A stretch of 64,000 nucleotides of DNA from an uncultured Bacilli bacterium (GTDB lineage: Bacteria > Bacillota_I > Bacilli_A > RF39 > UBA660): positions 39,975 through 103,974 of the forward strand of contig CAKPHH010000003.1 of assembly GCA_934157235.1 (NCBI GenBank), in the 5' to 3' direction. Within the stretch, counting starts at the first letter, position 1; each line of letters begins with the position of its first letter. The notes under the pieces are model-generated. The model made no database searches, had not been told where the DNA came from, and worked only from the letters and a program-made list of their open reading frames with translations. This document shows, in pieces, positions 38,607 through 48,535 of this stretch. The translations under genes and the position numbers were made by a program.

Positions 38607-38887
38607 GTGTTTAATTTACTCTTCTGCTTTAATATTTTGCTTCTTGTATTTTCTTTTTATAAAGAATAAGATATGGTTATGAATGCTTATTAAAGTTCTA
38701 GAAAATCTATATCATTTTATTACTCTACCTATTTGTTAAAAATAAAAGAGCTTTTTTTTTGGGGGGACTGCTTTCTTCAGGGGGCCTGCAAATAGCATCA
38801 CTTTTTTTTCATATTTCTCAATATTATTGATTTATAACATGCTATATTTCTCGTAAATAGCCCTATTTTACCTATCGTTACCTATGT

Positions 38888-38929
38888 ACTTGTTCCCAAG
38901 TTGTTCCCAAGTTGTTCCAAAGAATTATT
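38888..38929 (+). repeat. Left boundary repeat: ACTTGTTCCCAAG-TTGTTCCCAAG-TTGTTCCAAAG-AATTATT (three tandem 11-mers)
   Basis: Read directly from the sequence. It overlaps the stop codon (38928-38930) of the 229-aa gene. Confidence 0.9.
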
Positions 38930-39617
38930 ATTTTTGCTTTTTAGATTTTGCTTGTTTTTTTATTTTTGAATTTTTATTAACTTCTATTTTTTCTTCTTCA
39001 TATTCAACATATAACTCACTAAAAATTATTTCTAATCTCTCATAAATTCCATCTTCGCCTTTTAATACCTTTTTTACTTCAGCAAATTTCTTTATTGAAA
39101 AGTAAATTATAGCCGATGCTAACACTATGCTTATCAAATATGGCAGGGATTTTTCAAAACTATTTATATTAAATCCTTCTTTAGTTACAAATGCCAACGC
39201 AATTGATATAACTATGGCTATAATTGCCCAGAAATTATCTCCTACTATCTTTGGCTTTATGTAAGTTCTATAATGATTTAAAATGCATTCTAAAGCTTTT
39301 TTATTATATTTTTTCTCATCTTTTAGAAATTTTTTAAATAATTCTTTTTCTTTATTATTTATTATTTCATCTAATGATAACCCTTTATTGTCTTTTTTAT
39401 CAAAATTAAAATATAACTTTGCATTTAATTCTTTTTCACATATCTTCTTCATTATAAAGAATACAGAGACTAAAACTAAAATCATTAAAATGTATGCCCT
39501 ACCAATATTTAATATCCATAATAAAGGCATTATTATAATGTAAGTCCAAAATATTTTCTTTGTAATTCTATTATAAGAGCTTTGTTTTTTATATAAATCT
39601 TCTATCTTATTAAACAT
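38928..39617 (-). CDS. Hypothetical 4-TM membrane protein (islet cargo)
   Basis: AGGAGG RBS. Two N-terminal and two central TM helices, a Lys/Glu-rich soluble segment and a Lys-rich tail. No family recognised. Confidence 0.5.
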   Translation of the reverse strand: MFNKIEDLYKKQSSYNRITKKIFWTYIIIMPLLWILNIGRAYILMILVLVSVFFIMKKICEKELNAKLYFNFDKKDNKGLSLDEIINNKEKELFKKFLKDEKKYNKKALECILNHYRTYIKPKIVGDNFWAIIAIVISIALAFVTKEGFNINSFEKSLPYLISIVLASAIIYFSIKKFAEVKKVLKGEDGIYERLEIIFSELYVEYEEEKIEVNKNSKIKKQAKSKKQK

Positions 39618-39640
39618 ATAAAACCTCCTGATTAGCTAAT

Positions 39641-39649
39641 ATTATACCA
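39641..39649 (-). promoter_or_regulatory. Extended -10 promoter element (TGGTATAAT) for the 229-aa gene
   Basis: Minus strand reads TGGTATAAT about 20 nt upstream of the AGGAGG RBS. The -35 element is poor. Confidence 0.45.
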
Positions 39650-39704
39650 TAATTTGATAATATAATTGCTGCATAATAAAAGATATTGACTATTTCATCA
39701 ATAC

Positions 39705-40874
39705 CTAATTTTTAAATAATTCTTTCCATTTCTTTATATTTTCTTCATCCTCATCACTTAATAAATACTTCATAATCATTTTAGATAAATTATCTATATC
39801 TTCCTGCTTATGTAACACATGTATTTTTCTATGACAATTTGGACATATAGCTACTGTATTGTATATAGCATCAGGACCATTTTCAGCTAATGTTATTACG
39901 TGATGTGACTCAAGATATGGCCTGCCATTTTTATCCTTAAATGGTGCTTCTTTACCACATAAATCACATATACCATTTGCTCTTTCTTTTGTGTACTCTG
40001 CTATATACTGATTTCTTTCTCTATACGTTGTTTTTACCTCTTTAGTGTACACATTATCAGTCTCTGCTATTTTAGCTCTTTTCTTAATTTCTGCTACGTT
40101 AAACTTTCTTACTTCTTTTATTTTTTCGCTTTCGCTTTTTTCAATGTCTTCAATATCAATTATTATCGGTTTAGATTGATCAATTCTTTTTAATGGAAAT
40201 TTAATTACTTTTCTTATTATTCCATTAATATCAGCTTCCTCAGATTGATATGGTGTTCCTGCTAATTCAACTTCTCCATCATAATAGTATTCGTTATCTT
40301 TATATGATTCGAATAAGTATACTTTTATTCCTTCACGTTTAGCTATTGTTAAAGTTTTGTTCTGAGCAAATGCAATACTTTGATCATTCTCTGTTCCCAT
40401 TCCTGTATAATTTAAAATGCCATCATCTGTCCATTGATCATCATATAAAGGATTATTATGCTTTGCAATTAATACTAATGAATTAGTATCTTTAGACCTT
40501 CTCATTCCACCCATGTTTGAACATTTAAATGTATTAGCTATCTCACTATTTGAATATACATTTCCTACTATTAAATCATTTATCCCATAATAATGGCTCA
40601 TTTCATCTGGATAATTGTCTTTTAGGTAATCTGCTAATGATTCATTACTTAAAATACCATTTTGCTCTAAGAATATAAAATCATCTGCATACTTATGATT
40701 TCCACCTTTAAATTTCAAAAAATGTTCATACATATTTCCTGTATATTTTATATACTTAATTCTACTATACTCCACTTGTATTCTCTTCTTAAATTTTTCA
40801 TACTCTGGATGATTATTTATAAATTCTAAAGCTTTATCAAAATTATCAAAAACGAATTTAACTCCTTTATCCAT
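39705..40874 (-). CDS. Putative modification-dependent (type IV-like) nuclease: unknown N-domain + SRA/YDG-like reader + McrA-type HNH
   Basis: The C-terminus CDLCGKEAPFKDKNGRPYLESHHVITLAENGPDAIYNTVAICPNCHRKIH is an HNH motif. The middle GGMRRSKDTNSLVLIAKHNNPLYDDQWTDDGILNYTGMGTENDQSIAFAQNKTL...KVYLFE resembles SRA-like domains of SRA-HNH enzymes; that domain call is an inference. Confidence 0.65.
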   Translation of the reverse strand: MDKGVKFVFDNFDKALEFINNHPEYEKFKKRIQVEYSRIKYIKYTGNMYEHFLKFKGGNHKYADDFIFLEQNGILSNESLADYLKDNYPDEMSHYYGINDLIVGNVYSNSEIANTFKCSNMGGMRRSKDTNSLVLIAKHNNPLYDDQWTDDGILNYTGMGTENDQSIAFAQNKTLTIAKREGIKVYLFESYKDNEYYYDGEVELAGTPYQSEEADINGIIRKVIKFPLKRIDQSKPIIIDIEDIEKSESEKIKEVRKFNVAEIKKRAKIAETDNVYTKEVKTTYRERNQYIAEYTKERANGICDLCGKEAPFKDKNGRPYLESHHVITLAENGPDAIYNTVAICPNCHRKIHVLHKQEDIDNLSKMIMKYLLSDEDEENIKKWKELFKN

Positions 40875-40876
40875 AA

Positions 40877-41263
40877 TTACATCTCCTTAACAAATTTGGC
40901 TAGTGGTATATCTGCTTGTGCTAAATCATAATCTAATAAATCTTTCTTATCCACCCATTTATATTCAGAATGATCATGTAAATGAAAATCACCTGACATA
41001 TAAGTACAACTATACAATTTTAAATCAACTGTCTTTTGAGGGTATTTGCACACATTATTTACTAAGAATTTATTTGCATGAACTTCTAATTCAAACTCTT
41101 CTTTAATTTCTCTTTCTATTGCGATTTTTTCATCTTCGTCTTGTTTTACTTTACCGCCAGGAAATTCCCACTTTCCTAATACATTAGGATCGCCTGTGGA
41201 ACGTTTAGCTATTAATACTTTATTATTTTTTTCTATTAAAGCTGCCACAACATTTATAATCAT
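40877..41263 (-). CDS. MutT/NudG-like NUDIX (d)NTP pyrophosphohydrolase
   Basis: The Nudix box LGKWEFPGGKVKQDEDEKIAIEREIKEEFEL is the MutT-subfamily signature. The ATG at 41263 is preceded by AGGTGG at 5 nt. Its stop lies 2 nt upstream of the next ATG. Confidence 0.85.
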   Translation of the reverse strand: MIINVVAALIEKNNKVLIAKRSTGDPNVLGKWEFPGGKVKQDEDEKIAIEREIKEEFELEVHANKFLVNNVCKYPQKTVDLKLYSCTYMSGDFHLHDHSEYKWVDKKDLLDYDLAQADIPLAKFVKEM

Positions 41264-41290
41264 TGCTACCACCTATAATTATTATAACAC

Positions 41291-41313
41291 AGAAAAAGCT
41301 CATTAAATGAGCT
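41291..41313 (-). terminator. Rho-independent terminator after the truncated HNH gene
   Basis: Minus strand reads AGCTCAT-TTA-ATGAGCT followed by TTTTTCTG. Confidence 0.6.
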
Positions 41314-41321
41314 ATATTAAA

Positions 41322-41771
41322 TTATGCTAATAAATAATTTTTTCTTCTATATTCTATTGCATCTACATCAGGGTAATTATTTTCATCTTCTGGTAATTTT
41401 ATTATTTTATTATTAATTCTAGATAGAATTCCTGTTTTGTCTTTTACTCTATCACTTTCGGTTACTACAACTTTTAAATCACCTTCATCAGTATATTCAA
41501 ATGCAAATAACTTTTTATCAAACATTCTATGCATCTCTACTGATAAAGCAATCCCATTGTTAACTGAAAATGATCCAGAATCACTATATGGAATTATATG
41601 AGCAGCCTCTAACAAATAAGTTGTTGAATTATAATTTTTAATTTCTATTGATTTTCCTGTTATAGCACATTGATAACCATATGCTTTTAGGACTTCTTCT
41701 CTGAATCTTCTTTGTTCTTCTGCCGATCTTCCTGTTACTCTTACATCATCATAAGATAATTCAGTTTGAAT
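41322..41771 (-). pseudogene. 5'-truncated HNH endonuclease gene (HNH_2 / AAHIxP type)
   Basis: The frame is open from 41771 (IQTELSYDDVRVTGRSAEEQRRFREEVLKAYGYQCAITGKSIEIKNYNSTTYLLEAAHIIPYSDSG...NGIALSVEMHRMFDKKLF) with no ATG. The track ORF begins at an internal TTG. An in-frame stop lies at 41772-41774. Confidence 0.6.
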
Positions 41772-41824
41772 TTAAATTAAAATTAAGAGAAGATGAGAAT
41801 ACTAATAATGTAACTTTTGAAGAA

Positions 41825-42748
41825 ATGATTAGAATGTTTATTGATTTTAGAAAAGATAAAGTTAAGGAAAATACATTATATGGTTACAACAATAAATTAC
41901 CTTATTTAAAATCACTATATAAAGTTAAACTTAAAGATTTTAACTACCCTACTTTTGAAAGATGGCATGATGAAATAAATAGTACTCATCTTGCTACAAG
42001 AACTAAAAATGACATATATAAATTATCAAAAACTATTTTAAATTATGTTACTGCATGGTATGAGTTTAACTTTGCTAAGGTATATCCTAAAATGTATAAC
42101 TTTAATGATCCTAATGAATTCCCAAAAGAACAGTTATTTTTTACTTATGAAGAATTCAAACAATTTCTTTCTGTTGAAACTGATATCAAATGGATTGGTA
42201 TTTTTGAGATATTATATTACTGTGGATTAAGACGTGGAGAGCTTAGAGGATTGCAATGGAAAGATATCAATTTTAAAGATAGAACTTTAAGTATAACAAA
42301 GCAAATTAATGACCGTTGCGGATCCGTTAAAAACTGGCGATTCTCGGTTTCTAAAACTAAAAGTAGTATAAGAATATTAAAGATGCATCAAGTCCTCACA
42401 AATGACCTTAAAATGATGAAAAGCGAGGCAGAAAAGGTTCCTGGATTTAATGATAATTTCTTTGTCGCAGGAGATATGCTTCCAGTATGCAGTAATACAC
42501 TTACTAATCATAAAAATGTTAATTGTAAATTAGTTGATGTTAAACAGATCCGATTACATGATTTCAGACATTCTTGTGCATCTCTTCTGGTTAATAAAGG
42601 AGCTAACGTTCAAGTAGTAGCAAAATACTTAGGCCATACAAAAGTTGAAGAAACTTTAAAAACTTATTCACACCTATTTACAAGCACTTTGGATGAAGTC
42701 GTTGCCGTAATAGATAACTTAGACAATAATAAAACCGATGATGTTTAG
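41825..42748 (+). CDS. Tyrosine recombinase (phage-integrase family), probably 5'-truncated
   Basis: Catalytic residues in GLRRGEL (R), HDFRHS (H-x-x-R), LGH and TYSHL (Y). The ORF begins inside the SAM-like core-binding region (VTFEEMIRMFIDFRKDKVKENTLYGY). No arm-binding N-domain or RBS is seen upstream. Confidence 0.75.
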   Translation: MIRMFIDFRKDKVKENTLYGYNNKLPYLKSLYKVKLKDFNYPTFERWHDEINSTHLATRTKNDIYKLSKTILNYVTAWYEFNFAKVYPKMYNFNDPNEFPKEQLFFTYEEFKQFLSVETDIKWIGIFEILYYCGLRRGELRGLQWKDINFKDRTLSITKQINDRCGSVKNWRFSVSKTKSSIRILKMHQVLTNDLKMMKSEAEKVPGFNDNFFVAGDMLPVCSNTLTNHKNVNCKLVDVKQIRLHDFRHSCASLLVNKGANVQVVAKYLGHTKVEETLKTYSHLFTSTLDEVVAVIDNLDNNKTDDV

Positions 42749-42762
42749 TCACCGGTTATTTT

Positions 42763-44559
42763 TTAATTATAGTAATTATTTAAATAATCATATATTTTTT
42801 CAAATGATTTTTTTACATCATTTGGGATATTAATTTCTTTATTACACATAAGTAGTTCTTGTATCGCTTTATTATAAAGATTTTTTGTATATTTTTGTTT
42901 ATCTGGAAAACAACTCTTCTCAATAAAAAGTTTTATTTTATTATCTAAGATCGATTCCATATTTTTCTTTTTCCAAGAAGAATCTATATCATTTAAAGTT
43001 ATTATTTTTCCTTCTACTATAGCTCCAAATTGATCTTCATATCTTTTTTTACTTGTCTTTCCAGCATCATCTGAATCAAGTAAAACAATAAAGTTCTTTC
43101 CCCATCCATTATACAATGAAATTAATGTATCAACATTATTACAACTCATTCCAGGAATCAAGTGAAGATCTTCTCTTTTTAAGATTACTTTAAAGAAATA
43201 ATTAAGTACATAATAATCAGTTTTGCCCTCTACAATAATAGCATTATTACACATATCAAGTTCATTAGGAACATATTCCAATACATCTAAAATTGGTTGA
43301 AAATAGCTCACCCTTTGAGGATATTGATCAACAAACTGTCTGTAACGATATAGTCTAATATTTGTATTCTTTGCCTCGTAGTCTTCTTCACCACCATCAT
43401 AAGCATCGTTTGTAACAATATATGCACCCTCAAGCCAATTAGGATTAATAAGATGTTGGCTGTGTGTTGTATAAATTATTGTACATTTATCACTAATTGT
43501 TTCTAAATTTTTTATTAGTTGTTTTTGAGCTTTTTGAGATAAATTTGCAGCAGGTTCGTCAAATAAAAATATTATATGTTTATCTTCATTTTTTCTGTAT
43601 CCTCTAAATTGTGTTAAAAGAAGGAATACAAAGAACCATCTAAAGCCCTGAGAACGTTCACTTAAATGGAAATAACCATCATCACCCTCAATTTTAAATT
43701 CAATAAATACTCCTATTTGATCTTTATCAATTTCAACTGATATGCCTTTGGCTTTGTTCGTTAAAACCATAGACCATTCTTCTAAAATAACTTGAGATAA
43801 CTTTCGCCCCATCAGTAAACAAACTTGTTTTAAATTATCCCTATCATTTTTATCTTCAGATTTAATTCTATCAATTAAATGTTCCTTAATATTTAATGAT
43901 CCACCTAGCGAATCTAAAACATCCTGTACAACTAAACTATAGAACCTGTTCTTATAATCATTTTCAGGTATAGGATCCAAGTATATTTTATCTGGTAAAT
44001 CAAATAATGCTGAAGGAAAATATAATAGTTTTGGCATTTTTGTTTTTAACATATCCACTGCTTTTTTCCGTTCTTCTTCTCCAAGCTCTGCTAATTTTTT
44101 TGAGCTTGAACCTTTAGGCTTTCCAATTAACTTTAAATCCCATTTTTGAGTAGTACCCTCGTATTTAGAGTTTTTATAATTATATAATTGCTCTATTTTT
44201 ATTTCATCAACATTTTCACATAAAATAAAATTACAATTATTTTCCAGAAATTTCTTTAATTCTACCTTATCACTTTCTTCCAATAATAATGTAGTAATAA
44301 TTTTTATACTACCATTAAAGTTTGTTCTATCTTTAACAGGTATTATTTCTTCTGGTGTTGGAATGATAGCATTGCTAATAGTAGATAACTGTTTTTCTTC
44401 ATTATATTCAAATGAATTCATGGCCTCTAATATAGTCGTTTTACCGCTTTCATTAATACCTACTAAAGTAAACACATTATTACGTGGAGAGCTTTCCAAA
44501 GATAAATTAATTTTTTCAATACCTTTAAAGTTTTGTGCTTCTATTTCTTTTAGCCTCAT
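42763..44559 (-). CDS. OLD-family / PARIS-like ABC-type ATPase fused to a TOPRIM nuclease domain (stand-alone)
   Basis: Walker A GINESGKTT, signature-like LSERSQGFRWFF, Walker B IIFLFDEP and H-loop YTTHS. The C-terminal TOPRIM has IIVEGKTDYYVL (Glu) and VLLDSDDAGK (DxD). GGAGGA RBS is present. Confidence 0.75.
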   Translation of the reverse strand: MRLKEIEAQNFKGIEKINLSLESSPRNNVFTLVGINESGKTTILEAMNSFEYNEEKQLSTISNAIIPTPEEIIPVKDRTNFNGSIKIITTLLLEESDKVELKKFLENNCNFILCENVDEIKIEQLYNYKNSKYEGTTQKWDLKLIGKPKGSSSKKLAELGEEERKKAVDMLKTKMPKLLYFPSALFDLPDKIYLDPIPENDYKNRFYSLVVQDVLDSLGGSLNIKEHLIDRIKSEDKNDRDNLKQVCLLMGRKLSQVILEEWSMVLTNKAKGISVEIDKDQIGVFIEFKIEGDDGYFHLSERSQGFRWFFVFLLLTQFRGYRKNEDKHIIFLFDEPAANLSQKAQKQLIKNLETISDKCTIIYTTHSQHLINPNWLEGAYIVTNDAYDGGEEDYEAKNTNIRLYRYRQFVDQYPQRVSYFQPILDVLEYVPNELDMCNNAIIVEGKTDYYVLNYFFKVILKREDLHLIPGMSCNNVDTLISLYNGWGKNFIVLLDSDDAGKTSKKRYEDQFGAIVEGKIITLNDIDSSWKKKNMESILDNKIKLFIEKSCFPDKQKYTKNLYNKAIQELLMCNKEINIPNDVKKSFEKIYDYLNNYYN

Positions 44560-44806: not shown

Positions 44807-47800
44807 TTAACTAACTGTTAATTCGATATTATTACCATTTTTAGTATCTAGCTTTAACTGATAGTTTTTGTCGTTTATAGTTGCTTTCTTAGCACTTAAA
44901 TCTCGTCTTAAGTTATCAGTTAATTCAGCTATATCTACTTTATTGGACTTTGTTGTGATAAAGATGGAATAAGTACCTTTTTCAAGTTTGCTTAAATCTA
45001 CTTTTGCATCATACCAAGCTCTTGTTTTATCTAAATTATCAGATTCTGGTAAGGCAACTTTATATAGACCATTGGTGATACTTCCTAAGTCAAAGGAGTA
45101 AGTCTTTAGAGTGGATTTATTTTCAAAGATTATTTTTCGTTCTACTTTAGCAGTTGGTGATAAATCCATACCGTATGAATATGAAACTCCTTTTAGATGT
45201 AATTTTCCGTCGACAAATTCTAGGGTTCTCCAAGTATCAAATTGATTATAATAACTACCTACTGTCTTTGTTGGAAAATCATCTCTTATATATAAAGTTA
45301 CAGCAGAGGTTTTATTTCCATAATTATTCTTTATTGAGACTGTTGTTTTAGTTGTTTCATGTCCAGTTACTTCAGTCTTATATAGTTTATTAGTTACTAG
45401 TACTTTACTATAGTTTTTATCTGATTCGGCAATGATATACATAGTATAATTAGCTCTTGGAAGAGAATCTATATCAATATCAATATAGAACCAAGAATGA
45501 GTATATTTATGGCCATCAGGTGAGGAAATTGGTCTTGTGATACCAGTTAAATCCTTTATCCTTGTCGCATTTTGTTCAAATGACTTACCAGCTTCATCTA
45601 CGAAGCGAATTTTATAACTAATATTTTCATTTAAAGTGTTATCCATACCATCTATAGTTAGATAGCCTCTTAATTGAAGTTTATTATTTACTTCTTTTAA
45701 ATAATCGAAATAGAATCTTCCATCTGTTTTTATTAATTTCTTTTCAGTTACGGTAACTTTTATTTCTTTAGTTACTTTGTTACCATATGTATCTGCTACT
45801 TCATAAATGATTTTATACTCACCTATTTTAGTAATATCTACAGTATCGGCAATTGCTTTTACTTTTTTACTAATATCTCCATCTTCTGGATCAGTAGCTC
45901 TTACACCATCTAATCTATTGAAATCTTCATTTAGATATACTATTTTATCAGTAGCAATGATAGTTGGTAGTTGATTGGCAACTACTGTTACATTTATTGT
46001 TTTGGTTATGGTTTGTTTATAACTATCTGTTGCTTGATATGTTACTTGATAAGTTCCTACTTTATCGATATCAACTTTATTATCTGAAACTGTTACTTCT
46101 AGTTTTCCATCTTCTTCATCTGTTGCGGTTGCGTATTTTTTAGGATCAAATGGTAGTCCTTGAGTTATTACTATATTTTCAGCAGTTATAACAGGTTTTT
46201 TATTTTCTGTTACTGTTATTGTAATTGTTAGTGTAGTTGATTTATTTTTACTATCAGTTGCTTGATATGTTACTTGATAAGTTCCTACTTTATCAATATC
46301 AAGATTAGAATTAAGAACGATTACTTTTGCTTTTCCATCTTCTTTATCTGTTGCACTTACACCATTTAATAAATCTATTTTTGTTCCTTGAACTATTGTC
46401 TTTTCACTAGCATGAATTACTGGAGGAGTATTATCTGTTTCATATTTAGATACTGTAAAGCCGGCATCGTTAGTTTTAGCTAAAACCCAACCATACACAT
46501 TAGTATTACCGGTTAAATTTACAGGAATTTTATACCATAACCTGCCATCTACTGTTTTTTGTTCAAAGATTGGAACATAAGAATTATGATATAGTCCAGA
46601 GATGACATTGGTTGTTAATTCGATTGGTTCAGAATTTACTTCATTATAGTAGCAGCCATCTAAGTTCATGTACATTTTACCATATTCAGAAGTTATAAAA
46701 TCAAGAGAATCGGCGCTAACCCAATCTTTTTGATCTTTAAAGTAATCTGAGGTTACAAGATATGAAACTGGCTTATTATTTTCATAAGCTGCGGCATAGA
46801 CCATAACATAACGATCTTTTAAAACTGTTAGGCCTTTTTTAGTTTGAAGAGCAGAATCATAATAATATGGTGTATTTTTGATAGTTTTAGCAACTTTTGG
46901 TTTTAAGATATTATTACTATCATATAAATCATATTTATAATATTTATCAATATATTCTGTTACATCATTTGGTGATATATAACCATTTTTACCTTTATTG
47001 ATTTTTAAAACATAAGCAGCAGGAACATAGACATAGGAATTCCAGTTATAGTCTCCTGATGTTATTTCATTAAAGTTAGAATCAATATTTAAATCACTGA
47101 CTACTTTATACCATGTTGTATTTCCGTTTATTGATTGACCTTTTTTTTCTCCTATTATTACTAGAGCATCTCCAGCTTCTGTGTACTTATAAACAAACTT
47201 GGCACTATTAGTAGCATCACTTCTAGTATCAACAGAAGCAGTTACAACGCCTAGTTGATAGAAGTTATAATCTTGAAGTCCTTTTGCTTTATCCATGCTG
47301 TAATAACTAGCGGCCATTTTCTCACTCCAGTAAGGATCAGAGGCATACTTTACATTTTGACCCAATCTTTTATCTCCAAACTGGGAACCAAAATATTTCC
47401 AAGATCTTGGATGAGAAAAGCCATAGGTTACATAAGTTGAAGCATAGCCTAAGATACTACTAGCAAATGATGCATACCAGTTAGCGCCCTCTATAGGATT
47501 TGTGTCAACGGCATTTAAACCAAAGCCATTATTATTGACAATGGCTAGGTAACTACGACCATGACCAGTTTCATTTCTACTTAAACTTAGAGATAAAATT
47601 GCGTTTACGCCATATTTTTCTTGAGCATAATAGAAAAATTGACCTTTTCCATACAACCTTGAATTACCATTTCTTGAAGCTTTACCATAGGAGTCTTGAG
47701 TAATACCCATGTTATTACGAATATATTCATCAATATTAGCTGAAGAGTAACTTGTTCTACTATGATTTGATAAATACATGTAATAGTTATAGTAAGGATT

Positions 47801-48535
47801 ATCTTTATTGACTGAGTTGTTTCTGTTATTAGCTCTGTAATCTTTTATTAAAGCTACTAAAGTTTTATAGAAATAATGACCATCATAACTATAATACTTT
47901 CCTTCACTTAACATATCTGGTTTAGGACCAATGGTACTTCCGGATGATCCTGAGTATCCTTCTTGAATTTTGGAAACATAATTATGTCGTATAGTTTCAC
48001 TAGTTATTGTATATGAGGCACTTGATTTTACCCAAGTGATTGGAACTATCTCACAATTTTCATAAGTTATCCATCCTGTAAAGTTAGCAATTGTTACTTT
48101 AACAACCCAAGTTCCTTTTGAAGAATAAGCCGAATCTATTAAGACACCATCTACGCCACCATATCTACTATAGTTGTTCATATAGGTATAATTATAAGTT
48201 AAATCACTGGTATCATAATATTTAACATAGCTTGTAGTGTGAACACTTAAATCAACTAAGGCAACATTAGCATCAATAATTGTAGTTGCACCATTGATTT
48301 TAGTTAGGACAGCTAAGTCATTAGCCCCATTTTTAATCATGGCACTTTTAGCTTCTGCATAAGTGCTGTAGCAGCCTACAGGATCAATAACGCCATCGGC
48401 ATGAAAGCCTGCTACTTCATAGGCTCCACACAAATTACGATTTTTATAATCTTCTTTAGAAAAGGCAGAAACATTCAATGCGTTCATGAAAAATAGTGAA
48501 ATTATAAAAACTGATAAATAAAATATTTTTTTCAT
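44807..48535 (-). CDS. Secreted cell-wall hydrolase: GH73 N-acetylglucosaminidase domain + SH3-like regions + three Ig-like repeats + C-terminal beta-rich domains
   Basis: Signal peptide MKKIFYLSVFIISLFFMNALNVSA. GH73-like core YGVNAILSLSLSRNETGHGRSYLAIVNNNGFGLNAVD. Three ~76-aa repeats contain DIDKVGTYQVTYQATDS. Confidence 0.75.
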   Translation of the reverse strand: MKKIFYLSVFIISLFFMNALNVSAFSKEDYKNRNLCGAYEVAGFHADGVIDPVGCYSTYAEAKSAMIKNGANDLAVLTKINGATTIIDANVALVDLSVHTTSYVKYYDTSDLTYNYTYMNNYSRYGGVDGVLIDSAYSSKGTWVVKVTIANFTGWITYENCEIVPITWVKSSASYTITSETIRHNYVSKIQEGYSGSSGSTIGPKPDMLSEGKYYSYDGHYFYKTLVALIKDYRANNRNNSVNKDNPYYNYYMYLSNHSRTSYSSANIDEYIRNNMGITQDSYGKASRNGNSRLYGKGQFFYYAQEKYGVNAILSLSLSRNETGHGRSYLAIVNNNGFGLNAVDTNPIEGANWYASFASSILGYASTYVTYGFSHPRSWKYFGSQFGDKRLGQNVKYASDPYWSEKMAASYYSMDKAKGLQDYNFYQLGVVTASVDTRSDATNSAKFVYKYTEAGDALVIIGEKKGQSINGNTTWYKVVSDLNIDSNFNEITSGDYNWNSYVYVPAAYVLKINKGKNGYISPNDVTEYIDKYYKYDLYDSNNILKPKVAKTIKNTPYYYDSALQTKKGLTVLKDRYVMVYAAAYENNKPVSYLVTSDYFKDQKDWVSADSLDFITSEYGKMYMNLDGCYYNEVNSEPIELTTNVISGLYHNSYVPIFEQKTVDGRLWYKIPVNLTGNTNVYGWVLAKTNDAGFTVSKYETDNTPPVIHASEKTIVQGTKIDLLNGVSATDKEDGKAKVIVLNSNLDIDKVGTYQVTYQATDSKNKSTTLTITITVTENKKPVITAENIVITQGLPFDPKKYATATDEEDGKLEVTVSDNKVDIDKVGTYQVTYQATDSYKQTITKTINVTVVANQLPTIIATDKIVYLNEDFNRLDGVRATDPEDGDISKKVKAIADTVDITKIGEYKIIYEVADTYGNKVTKEIKVTVTEKKLIKTDGRFYFDYLKEVNNKLQLRGYLTIDGMDNTLNENISYKIRFVDEAGKSFEQNATRIKDLTGITRPISSPDGHKYTHSWFYIDIDIDSLPRANYTMYIIAESDKNYSKVLVTNKLYKTEVTGHETTKTTVSIKNNYGNKTSAVTLYIRDDFPTKTVGSYYNQFDTWRTLEFVDGKLHLKGVSYSYGMDLSPTAKVERKIIFENKSTLKTYSFDLGSITNGLYKVALPESDNLDKTRAWYDAKVDLSKLEKGTYSIFITTKSNKVDIAELTDNLRRDLSAKKATINDKNYQLKLDTKNGNNIELTVS
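45745..46430 (-). repeat. Three tandem ~230-bp coding repeats (Ig-like / DUF5011-type modules)
   Basis: Near-identical DNA blocks, e.g. GTTGCTTGATATGTTACTTGATAAGTTCCTACTTTATC near 46030 and again near 46260. The third copy is more diverged. Confidence 0.8.

Follow-up and report, generated by a model that had tools for sequence, protein, structure and literature searches.

A NUDIX hydrolase gene and an SRA-HNH nuclease gene in one operon: a probable Type IV restriction enzyme with a candidate modified-nucleotide sanitiser

The window analysed here was a stretch of 64,000 nucleotides (nt) from an uncultured Bacilli bacterium (GTDB lineage Bacillota_I, Bacilli_A, RF39, UBA660; contig CAKPHH010000003.1 of assembly GCA_934157235.1, positions 39,975 to 103,974 of the forward strand). 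At positions 39705-41263 of this window, a NUDIX hydrolase gene and an SRA-HNH nuclease gene made up an operon of two genes within an integrative defence island that has decayed. The nuclease, a protein of 389 amino acids (aa), had the architecture of a Type IV restriction enzyme of the modification-dependent kind, in which a rare helical domain was followed by a ScoMcrA-type SRA domain and a McrA-type HNH domain, and the NUDIX protein was very probably its dedicated accessory. The pairing of the two genes was strongly supported and taxonomically broad. The explanation that best accounted for the data, a Type IV nuclease accompanied by a NUDIX hydrolase that clears modified deoxycytidine triphosphate (dCTP), was given a probability of about 0.5; its least secure step was the sanitiser role as such, the predicted hydrolysis of modified dCTP, for which the odds fell slightly short of even.

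In the proposed mechanism, 5-methylcytosine (5mC) or 5-hydroxymethylcytosine (5hmC) on DNA entering from phages or plasmids would be flipped out and read by the SRA domain, with the HNH domain cutting near the modified base. The NUDIX protein would hydrolyse 5-methyl-dCTP or 5-hydroxymethyl-dCTP to the monophosphate. Modified cytosine would then fail to reach the host chromosome, and the host would not cleave its own DNA as modified DNA is broken down and its nucleotides are salvaged. Phages that replace cytosine would also see their pool of modified precursors drained, a secondary gain. Self-protection and depletion of the phage pool are compatible roles that sequence alone cannot separate.

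The two genes and their products

The features of the pair, all on the minus strand, were the following.

40877..41263, minus strand: NUDIX (MutT/NudG-like) pyrophosphohydrolase gene, 128 aa from the ATG at 41263
41087..41155, minus strand: Nudix box, residues 37-59, G-x5-E-x7-REIKEE-FEL, GKVKQDEDEKIAIEREIKEEFEL
40872..40879, minus strand: gene junction TAA-tt-ATG, with the NUDIX stop TAA at 40877-40879, a 2-nt gap and the ATG at 40874
39705..40874, minus strand: SRA-HNH nuclease gene, 389 aa, ATG at 40874
40575..40874, minus strand: N-terminal helical domain of the nuclease, aa 1-100, with a predicted local distance difference test score (pLDDT) of 77-96
40170..40574, minus strand: SRA_ScoMcrA-type SRA domain, aa ~101-235, predicted reader of flipped modified cytosine
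39801..40019, minus strand: McrA-type HNH nuclease domain, aa 286-358, matched by Pfam HNH, 6ghc and PADLOC mREase_IV

The Pfam HNH family matched aa 303-352 of the nuclease (E=3.5e-9), the closest solved relative of this region was EcoKMcrA (6ghc; 8.5e-18 with the single sequence and 1e-24 with a profile), and the PADLOC Type IV model mREase_IV matched the protein at 1e-19. The McrA-type HNH domain that the initial annotation had read at the C-terminus was thus confirmed. Residues C303, C306, H324, H325, N339, C344 and H348 were invariant among 32 homologues, and C347 was nearly so. The SRA-type reader proposed for the centre of the protein was also borne out. Precomputed matches to PF26348 (SRA_ScoMcrA) were present on every listed homologue (52-99% identity), those 83-99% identical among them, and these homologues carried PF26348 and PF01844 only, with no sulfur-binding domain. 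The AlphaFold2 model of the protein had a mean pLDDT of 82, and its top Foldseek match was ScoMcrA (1e-11), with further matches to the SRA domains of KRYPTONITE, SUVH5, SUVH6, UHRF1 and UHRF2 and to MspJI. The SRA domain was not detected by the local Pfam copy, from which PF26348 was missing, or by single-sequence and profile searches of PDB sequences, so the assignment rests on the precomputed Pfam matches and the fold comparison. Residues Y144, D145, D146, T157 and G158 were invariant in the homologue alignment, and members of the nuclease family showed weak, sub-threshold matches to both SAD_SRA and DUF3427. A non-significant hhalign alignment (E=0.067) to a UHRF1 SRA sequence placed Y144 and Y156-T157-G158 opposite Y466 and Y478-T479-G480 of UHRF1. 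By analogy with its characterised relatives, the SRA-HNH protein would read modified cytosine and cut the DNA that carries it.

The first 100 residues, which had been unrecognised in the initial annotation, still matched no Pfam family and no PDB fold. The domain was rare, with 35 representative clusters among 1.84 billion proteins. Proteins starting with the same domain included P0143 and P0144 (about 840 aa), which carried SIR2_2 further along, and P0121, which carried NOV_C. Since it stood ahead of SIR2_2 or NOV_C elsewhere, it had the look of a small adaptor carried by defence proteins, which suggests an adaptor or sensor module shared by several defence effectors. The N-terminus of the nuclease family was modular. 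The close homologues P0044, P0057, P0065 and P0066 (519-599 aa) had N-terminal extensions of 130-210 aa without a family match, and homologue P0115 (422 aa) carried a different domain in place of the N-terminal domain. The length of the 519-599-aa homologues would fit a fusion with the NUDIX protein (389 plus 128 is about 519); this was ruled out, the additional residues being other N-terminal extensions.

The 128-aa open reading frame carried the Nudix box noticed before and matched the Pfam families NUDIX (E=3e-13) and NUDIX_4 (9e-13). Compared with the consensus GX5EX7REUXEEXGU, the core was intact and the penultimate Gly was replaced by Glu. Judged by this conserved catalytic core, the gene encodes a catalytically intact MutT/NudG-like NUDIX hydrolase. 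The closest solved relative was E. coli NudG (2rrk, 7.6e-20); other solved relatives included MutT proteins and 3ees, a "probable pyrophosphohydrolase". Among the NCBIfam models for named enzymes, the NudG model PRK10546 was the closest (97.5 bits) and was tied with the generic "Nudix family hydrolase" model PRK08999 (97.7 bits, cut-off 245), and the MutT models scored lower and below their cut-offs (TIGR00586, 66.4 vs 97.9 bits; PRK10776, 59.1 vs 148).

Further likeness to NudG was seen in single residues by comparison with NudG and MutT reference sequences; the NudG one largely agreed with the structure-database alignment. Asp118 was present in 64 of 64 nuclease-linked NUDIX proteins and His98 in 61 of 64, as in NudG, and the MutT reference and MutT-like unlinked proteins had Asn and Gly at these positions. 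The REUXEE core was kept in all 49 separate nuclease-linked partners and was absent only from a fusion protein described below. The nuclease-linked NUDIX proteins thus appeared NudG-like rather than MutT-like by their best PDB and NCBIfam relatives and by Asp118 and His98.

The arrangement of the genes was consistent with joint expression. The NUDIX stop codon lay 2 nt before the ATG of the nuclease, as first read, and a GGAG was located 9 nt 5' of this ATG, inside the 3' end of the NUDIX gene, which made translational coupling of the two genes plausible. In relatives, the distance between the genes was mostly -37 to +36 nt, or they overlapped by 1 nt. Upstream of the pair, the following elements were found.

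41269..41274, minus strand: ribosome-binding site AGGTGG, 5 nt 5' of the NUDIX ATG
41281..41289, minus strand: candidate extended -10 element TGtTATAAT for the two-gene operon, as read from the sequence
41297..41313, minus strand: terminator-like hairpin with a 7-bp stem, a 3-nt loop and a T-run, closing the upstream gene remnant just 5' of the operon

An alternative NUDIX start, the GTG at 41272, fell within the AGGTGG and was unlikely for this reason; NUDIX homologues were likewise 128 aa long, which favoured the ATG at 41263. The extended -10-like element was missed by a consensus promoter scan because it had no good -35. Together with the upstream hairpin, it made the pair look like its own transcription unit. 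No methyltransferase was found among the six neighbouring open reading frames in the window, which agreed with the initial annotation of the islet, and the methyltransferases near close relatives were of the N6_N4 or Eco57I types, not C5.

Recurrence of the gene pair

A profile search with the nuclease in GTDB, using one genome per species, yielded 80 loci from Bacillota, Proteobacteria, Saccharibacteria, Elusimicrobia, Thermotogae and several archaeal lineages, most of them encoding SRA-HNH proteins of ~270 aa without the N-terminal domain. A directly adjacent NUDIX gene on the same strand was present in 48 of these loci, upstream in 29 and downstream in 19. At one further locus, L074:5611-6831 of Marinospirillum celere (identical to L192), the two proteins were fused as NUDIX-SRA-HNH; no other fusion was found. 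NUDIX genes made up 45 of the 155 genes directly adjacent to homologues and none of 679 other genes at the same loci (Fisher p=3.6e-36). On the IMG/VR contigs, 21 of 33 loci were paired with NUDIX and the same fusion sequence appeared again; sequenced phages in INPHARED gave distant partial matches only. The distance matrices of the NUDIX and nuclease proteins were correlated (Spearman 0.29, a value reached in none of 2000 permutations), and in close relatives the pair stayed together and the flanking genes varied. Co-occurrence across genomes, on which the initial annotation had made its proposal depend, was therefore found in about 60% of relatives, in bacterial and archaeal phyla and in both gene orders, with one fusion and with correlated divergence.

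The NUDIX subfamily was also examined from its own side, through the 80 closest NUDIX loci in metagenomes. DUF3427 proteins, mostly SauUSI-like with the order PLD-helicase-DUF3427, adjoined the NUDIX gene in 12 of the 80, SRA-HNH genes in 2, and mREase_IV of PADLOC matched 8 of the 42 same-strand operon partners scanned. The remaining close loci had housekeeping-like contexts, for example FeoB, GST, DinB and LysR. DUF3427-linked and SRA-HNH-linked NUDIX proteins were intermixed, with identities up to 68%; this likeness to the SauUSI type refers to the metagenomic DUF3427-linked proteins. The NUDIX protein thus accompanied both this nuclease family and the SauUSI-like DUF3427 nucleases, as a partner that is conserved widely yet can be absent. 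Two other metagenomic loci showed the same NUDIX subfamily, adjoining a Y-family DNA polymerase (IMS/DinB) in L120:2990-4597 and, in L147:699-5384, joined in one protein to a metallo-beta-lactamase-fold domain, with a helicase-PLD protein of 1158 aa alongside.

A NUDIX gene beside a Type IV enzyme has been described before. A MutT/NUDIX gene was reported to be linked to SauUSI and at least 60 SauUSI-like enzymes, with its function left open and a role in pyrophosphate metabolism proposed (Xu et al. 2011, PMC3141236). The association of NUDIX with Type IV enzymes was also mentioned in a figure legend (Bell et al. 2020, PMC7641849). The literature search found no paper combining NUDIX with SRA-HNH enzymes and did not find the sanitiser idea for nuclease-linked NUDIX proteins. 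The initial annotation had named no earlier description of the pairing as a defence system. A lack of earlier description did not hold for NUDIX genes and 5mC/5hmC-dependent Type IV enzymes in general, which were covered by the two papers above and by the candidate PDC-S07 discussed below, and it held for SRA-HNH enzymes within the literature searched.

Role of the NUDIX protein

The step from a conserved partner to a sanitiser of modified dCTP was drawn from the resemblance to NudG, whose kcat/Km on 5-methyl-dCTP is 3e5 to 1.3e6 per M per s (PMC3744803, PMC5158307), and from the nature of the partners. The NudG-like character given to the NUDIX protein in the initial annotation was upheld by the proximity to 2rrk, though the match stayed below the PRK10546 cut-off.

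Several observations weighed against the sanitiser reading. The cut-off of PRK10546 is 156 bits, well above the score of the window protein, so that by the curated threshold the protein is not a NudG equivalog. Residues R72 and R77 of NudG, which we take to be important for 5-methyl-dCTP, were not conserved in the nuclease-linked NUDIX proteins. The Nudix core of the only fusion read RHVKEK instead of REUXEE; the fused domain is probably catalytically dead, judged by these residues, and its degenerate core hints at a binding rather than a catalytic role. About 37% of the SRA-HNH relatives (29 loci) had no NUDIX gene, and no substitute partner was found in these 29 loci, whose neighbours were heterogeneous. 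As the presence of NUDIX was, in addition, scattered over the nuclease tree, any protection that it provides must be dispensable. The SauUSI-linked nudix gene was deleted in S. aureus Newman with restriction retained (Monk et al. 2012, PMC3312211), and the viability of the deletion in the presence of SauUSI implied that the nuclease is not overtly toxic without NUDIX; the result fits an accessory role without demonstrating one. On the nuclease side, the non-significant UHRF1 alignment (E=0.067) placed Gln147, not Asp, opposite UHRF1 D469.

The NUDIX protein might instead be an antiviral effector that depletes modified dNTPs (deoxynucleoside triphosphates) made by the phage, such as 5-hydroxymethyl-dCTP, and does not serve host self-protection. 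Cytosine-substituting phages would then fail to replicate or would incorporate plain cytosine, and the SRA-HNH protein would cut the modified DNA that remained. We consider this unlikely. The effector role shares the evidence of linkage and NudG-likeness with the sanitiser role, the pair is located in defence islands with restriction-modification (R-M) genes, cyclic-oligonucleotide-based antiphage signalling system (CBASS) genes and OLD genes, and the NUDIX family has been flagged as a stand-alone candidate, PDC-S07, one of 145 defence candidates obtained by guilt-by-embedding in PADLOC (preprint 10.1101/2024.01.29.577857). The PDC-S07 model PDLC04899 matched the window NUDIX protein over its full length (1.9e-42, 142 bits), and PDC-S07 stood alongside Type IV R-M in 23 of 23 cases in an S. 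suis preprint. The same model was found in 99% of Enterobacter genomes (PMC12851794); it evidently also catches housekeeping NudG/MutT-like genes, which would inflate defence-system counts, and stand-alone matches therefore say little. For this reason, the PDC-S07 match was rejected as evidence of defence. Most of the close NUDIX relatives without a linked nuclease were in housekeeping contexts, and a small constitutive hydrolase acting as an effector would have to outcompete the dedicated synthesis pathway of the phage.

It is similarly improbable that the NUDIX protein acts on something other than modified dCTP, whether as a MutT-like sanitiser of 8-oxo-dGTP or 2-OH-dATP around nuclease-induced repair synthesis, as an RppH-like 5'-end enzyme or as a nucleotide-binding regulator of the nuclease. 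The MutT/NudG clade contains enzymes with other substrates, both curated NCBIfam cut-offs were missed, the sole fusion lacked the catalytic glutamates, which suggested a ligand-binding or structural role, and pyrophosphate metabolism had been the earlier proposal (PMC3141236). Against these points, the partners found were nucleases with reader domains for cytosine modification (SRA, DUF3427), a specificity that generic control of oxidative damage leaves unexplained, Asp118 and His98 agreed with NudG and not with MutT, and the catalytic core was conserved in every one of the separate partners. That the adjacency has no functional meaning, the NUDIX gene being a hitch-hiking housekeeping mutT-like gene or the HNH protein a selfish or homing enzyme instead of a restriction enzyme, is highly improbable and was already disfavoured, since the optional and often lost NUDIX gene and the lack of a reported phenotype for the S. 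aureus nudix deletion are outweighed by gene orders that recur both ways in separate clades, the fusion, the correlated divergence, the enrichment beside the nuclease, the movement of the pair as a unit between different flanks, the recruitment of the same NUDIX subfamily by an unrelated nuclease architecture, and the SRA reader with McrA-type HNH, a combination known from Type IV enzymes that have been tested.

Type IV enzymes are usually seen as single-protein systems that can do without an immunity partner because the modification is absent from the host. Conservation of a hydrolase partner would suggest that there is a hidden cost after all, the leakage of modified nucleotides through salvage into the host DNA, and that a dedicated fix for it exists. 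If the NUDIX protein does sanitise modified dCTP, this would explain the association of NUDIX with SauUSI, the main barrier to transformation of S. aureus, which has been unexplained since 2011, and it would give the PADLOC candidate PDC-S07 a concrete and testable role. SRA-HNH enzymes serve as reagents for mapping 5mC and 5hmC, and if a NUDIX enzyme had specificity for 5-methyl-dCTP or 5-hydroxymethyl-dCTP, it would serve well as a tool. A broader generalisation is tentative: a modified-dNTP sanitiser could serve as the "immunity" of modification-dependent restriction in a two-component design of bacteria and archaea, as the methyltransferase does in classical restriction, by barring modified cytosine, whether salvaged from degraded foreign DNA or of phage making, from the chromosome, where it would set off self-cleavage, with the same NUDIX subfamily repeatedly recruited by unrelated nucleases with related cytosine-modification readers (SRA_ScoMcrA-HNH and PLD-helicase-DUF3427).

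The surrounding island and known systems

The pair lay among remnants of a larger island, of which the following neighbours were recorded.

38928..39617, minus strand: 229-aa gene 87 nt downstream of the nuclease, without a family match; it has a ribosome-binding site and a promoter-like site of its own
41322..41786, minus strand: 3' remnant of an HNH_2 restriction-endonuclease gene, upstream of the pair
41825..42748, plus strand: tyrosine integrase, apparently 5'-truncated (307 aa vs 373 aa in relatives)
42763..44559, minus strand: OLD-family ATPase-TOPRIM nuclease, a second defence gene beyond the integrase (Pfam AAA_15 and OLD-like_TOPRIM; PADLOC AriA, Old and GajA)

In 98%-identical relatives, the HNH_2 gene was intact (387 aa) and preceded by a 669-aa N6_N4 methyltransferase. 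With relative L166, which carried an N6_N4 methyltransferase and the 387-aa HNH_2 endonuclease ahead of the pair, positions 39615..41786 of the window shared 97% identity. The HNH_2 remnant abutted the shortened integrase; the loss of the methyltransferase and of both 5' ends seems to go back to a single deletion joined at about 41763-41786. The remnant, the short integrase and the variable flanks together indicated that the pair has survived intact from a defence island that was once mobile and has since decayed.

The 229-aa gene was considered as a third component and rejected, because it had its own promoter-like site and was replaced by unrelated genes in relatives, either a 195-aa gene or a Type II R-M pair with CoiA and CBASS. 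Its position was a variable cargo slot and not that of a conserved partner. Directly after the variable cargo, a conserved segment of 110-140 nt was present in L161, L166 and L169, three relatives that differ elsewhere (84-86% identical; 38769..38921 in the window), and three tandem 11-mers, (C/G)TTGTTCC(C/A)AA, at 38889..38921 straddled its edge. Recombination or attachment of the island may take place at this segment; a tRNA was looked for at the island boundary and not found. Just beyond the defence islet, positions 44807..48535 (minus strand) held a 1242-aa open reading frame with a signal-peptide-like N-terminus and tandem repeats of Ig-like appearance.

Among the known systems, ScoMcrA (Sco4631 of Streptomyces coelicolor, PDB 5zmm) resembled the window nuclease in having an SRA_ScoMcrA domain followed by a McrA-type HNH domain, and it is a confirmed 5mC- or 5hmC-dependent enzyme that restricted phage T4gt 1.6e3-fold (PMC7461809). 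The order of its domains is head-SBD-SRA-HNH, whereas the window protein had no "head" or sulfur-binding domain and carried the unrelated 100-aa helical N-terminus instead; no NUDIX partner has been reported for ScoMcrA. TagI, ScoA3IV (Sco5333) and TbiR51I are likewise reader-plus-HNH enzymes with 5mC- or 5hmC-dependent cleavage and without a cognate methyltransferase, but their SRA domains were only distantly related to that of the window protein, and the match to TagI was confined to the HNH region (E=0.005). The words Nudix and MutT were absent from the papers on these three enzymes (PMC4333417, PMC6212794, PMC6765204). EcoKMcrA, the closest solved HNH relative, reads modified cytosine through its own N-terminal NEco domain and not through an SRA domain.

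On the side of the NUDIX partner, SauUSI and its MutT/NUDIX gene (SAUSA300_2431/2432) provide the nearest parallel in that a NUDIX gene is conserved beside a 5mC/5hmC-dependent Type IV enzyme. SauUSI differs in being an ATP-dependent PLD-helicase-DUF3427 enzyme of roughly 950 aa, whereas the partner in the window was an SRA-HNH protein. PDC-S07 is a single-gene candidate and not a two-gene system, although the window NUDIX protein matched its model. E. coli NudG shared with the window NUDIX protein the Nudix box, E33, H98, W103 and the PADIP motif with D118, and was roughly 35-45% identical to the nuclease-linked NUDIX clade. The NudG gene is a chromosomal housekeeping gene unlinked to a nuclease, in contrast to the window gene, which adjoins one. 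Human DCTPP1 is more distant, being a eukaryotic enzyme of the unrelated all-alpha MazG-like fold without a link to restriction; it has been reported to hydrolyse 5-methyl-dCTP and to restrain its entry into DNA, and in this it follows the logic of pool sanitation proposed here for the NUDIX partner.

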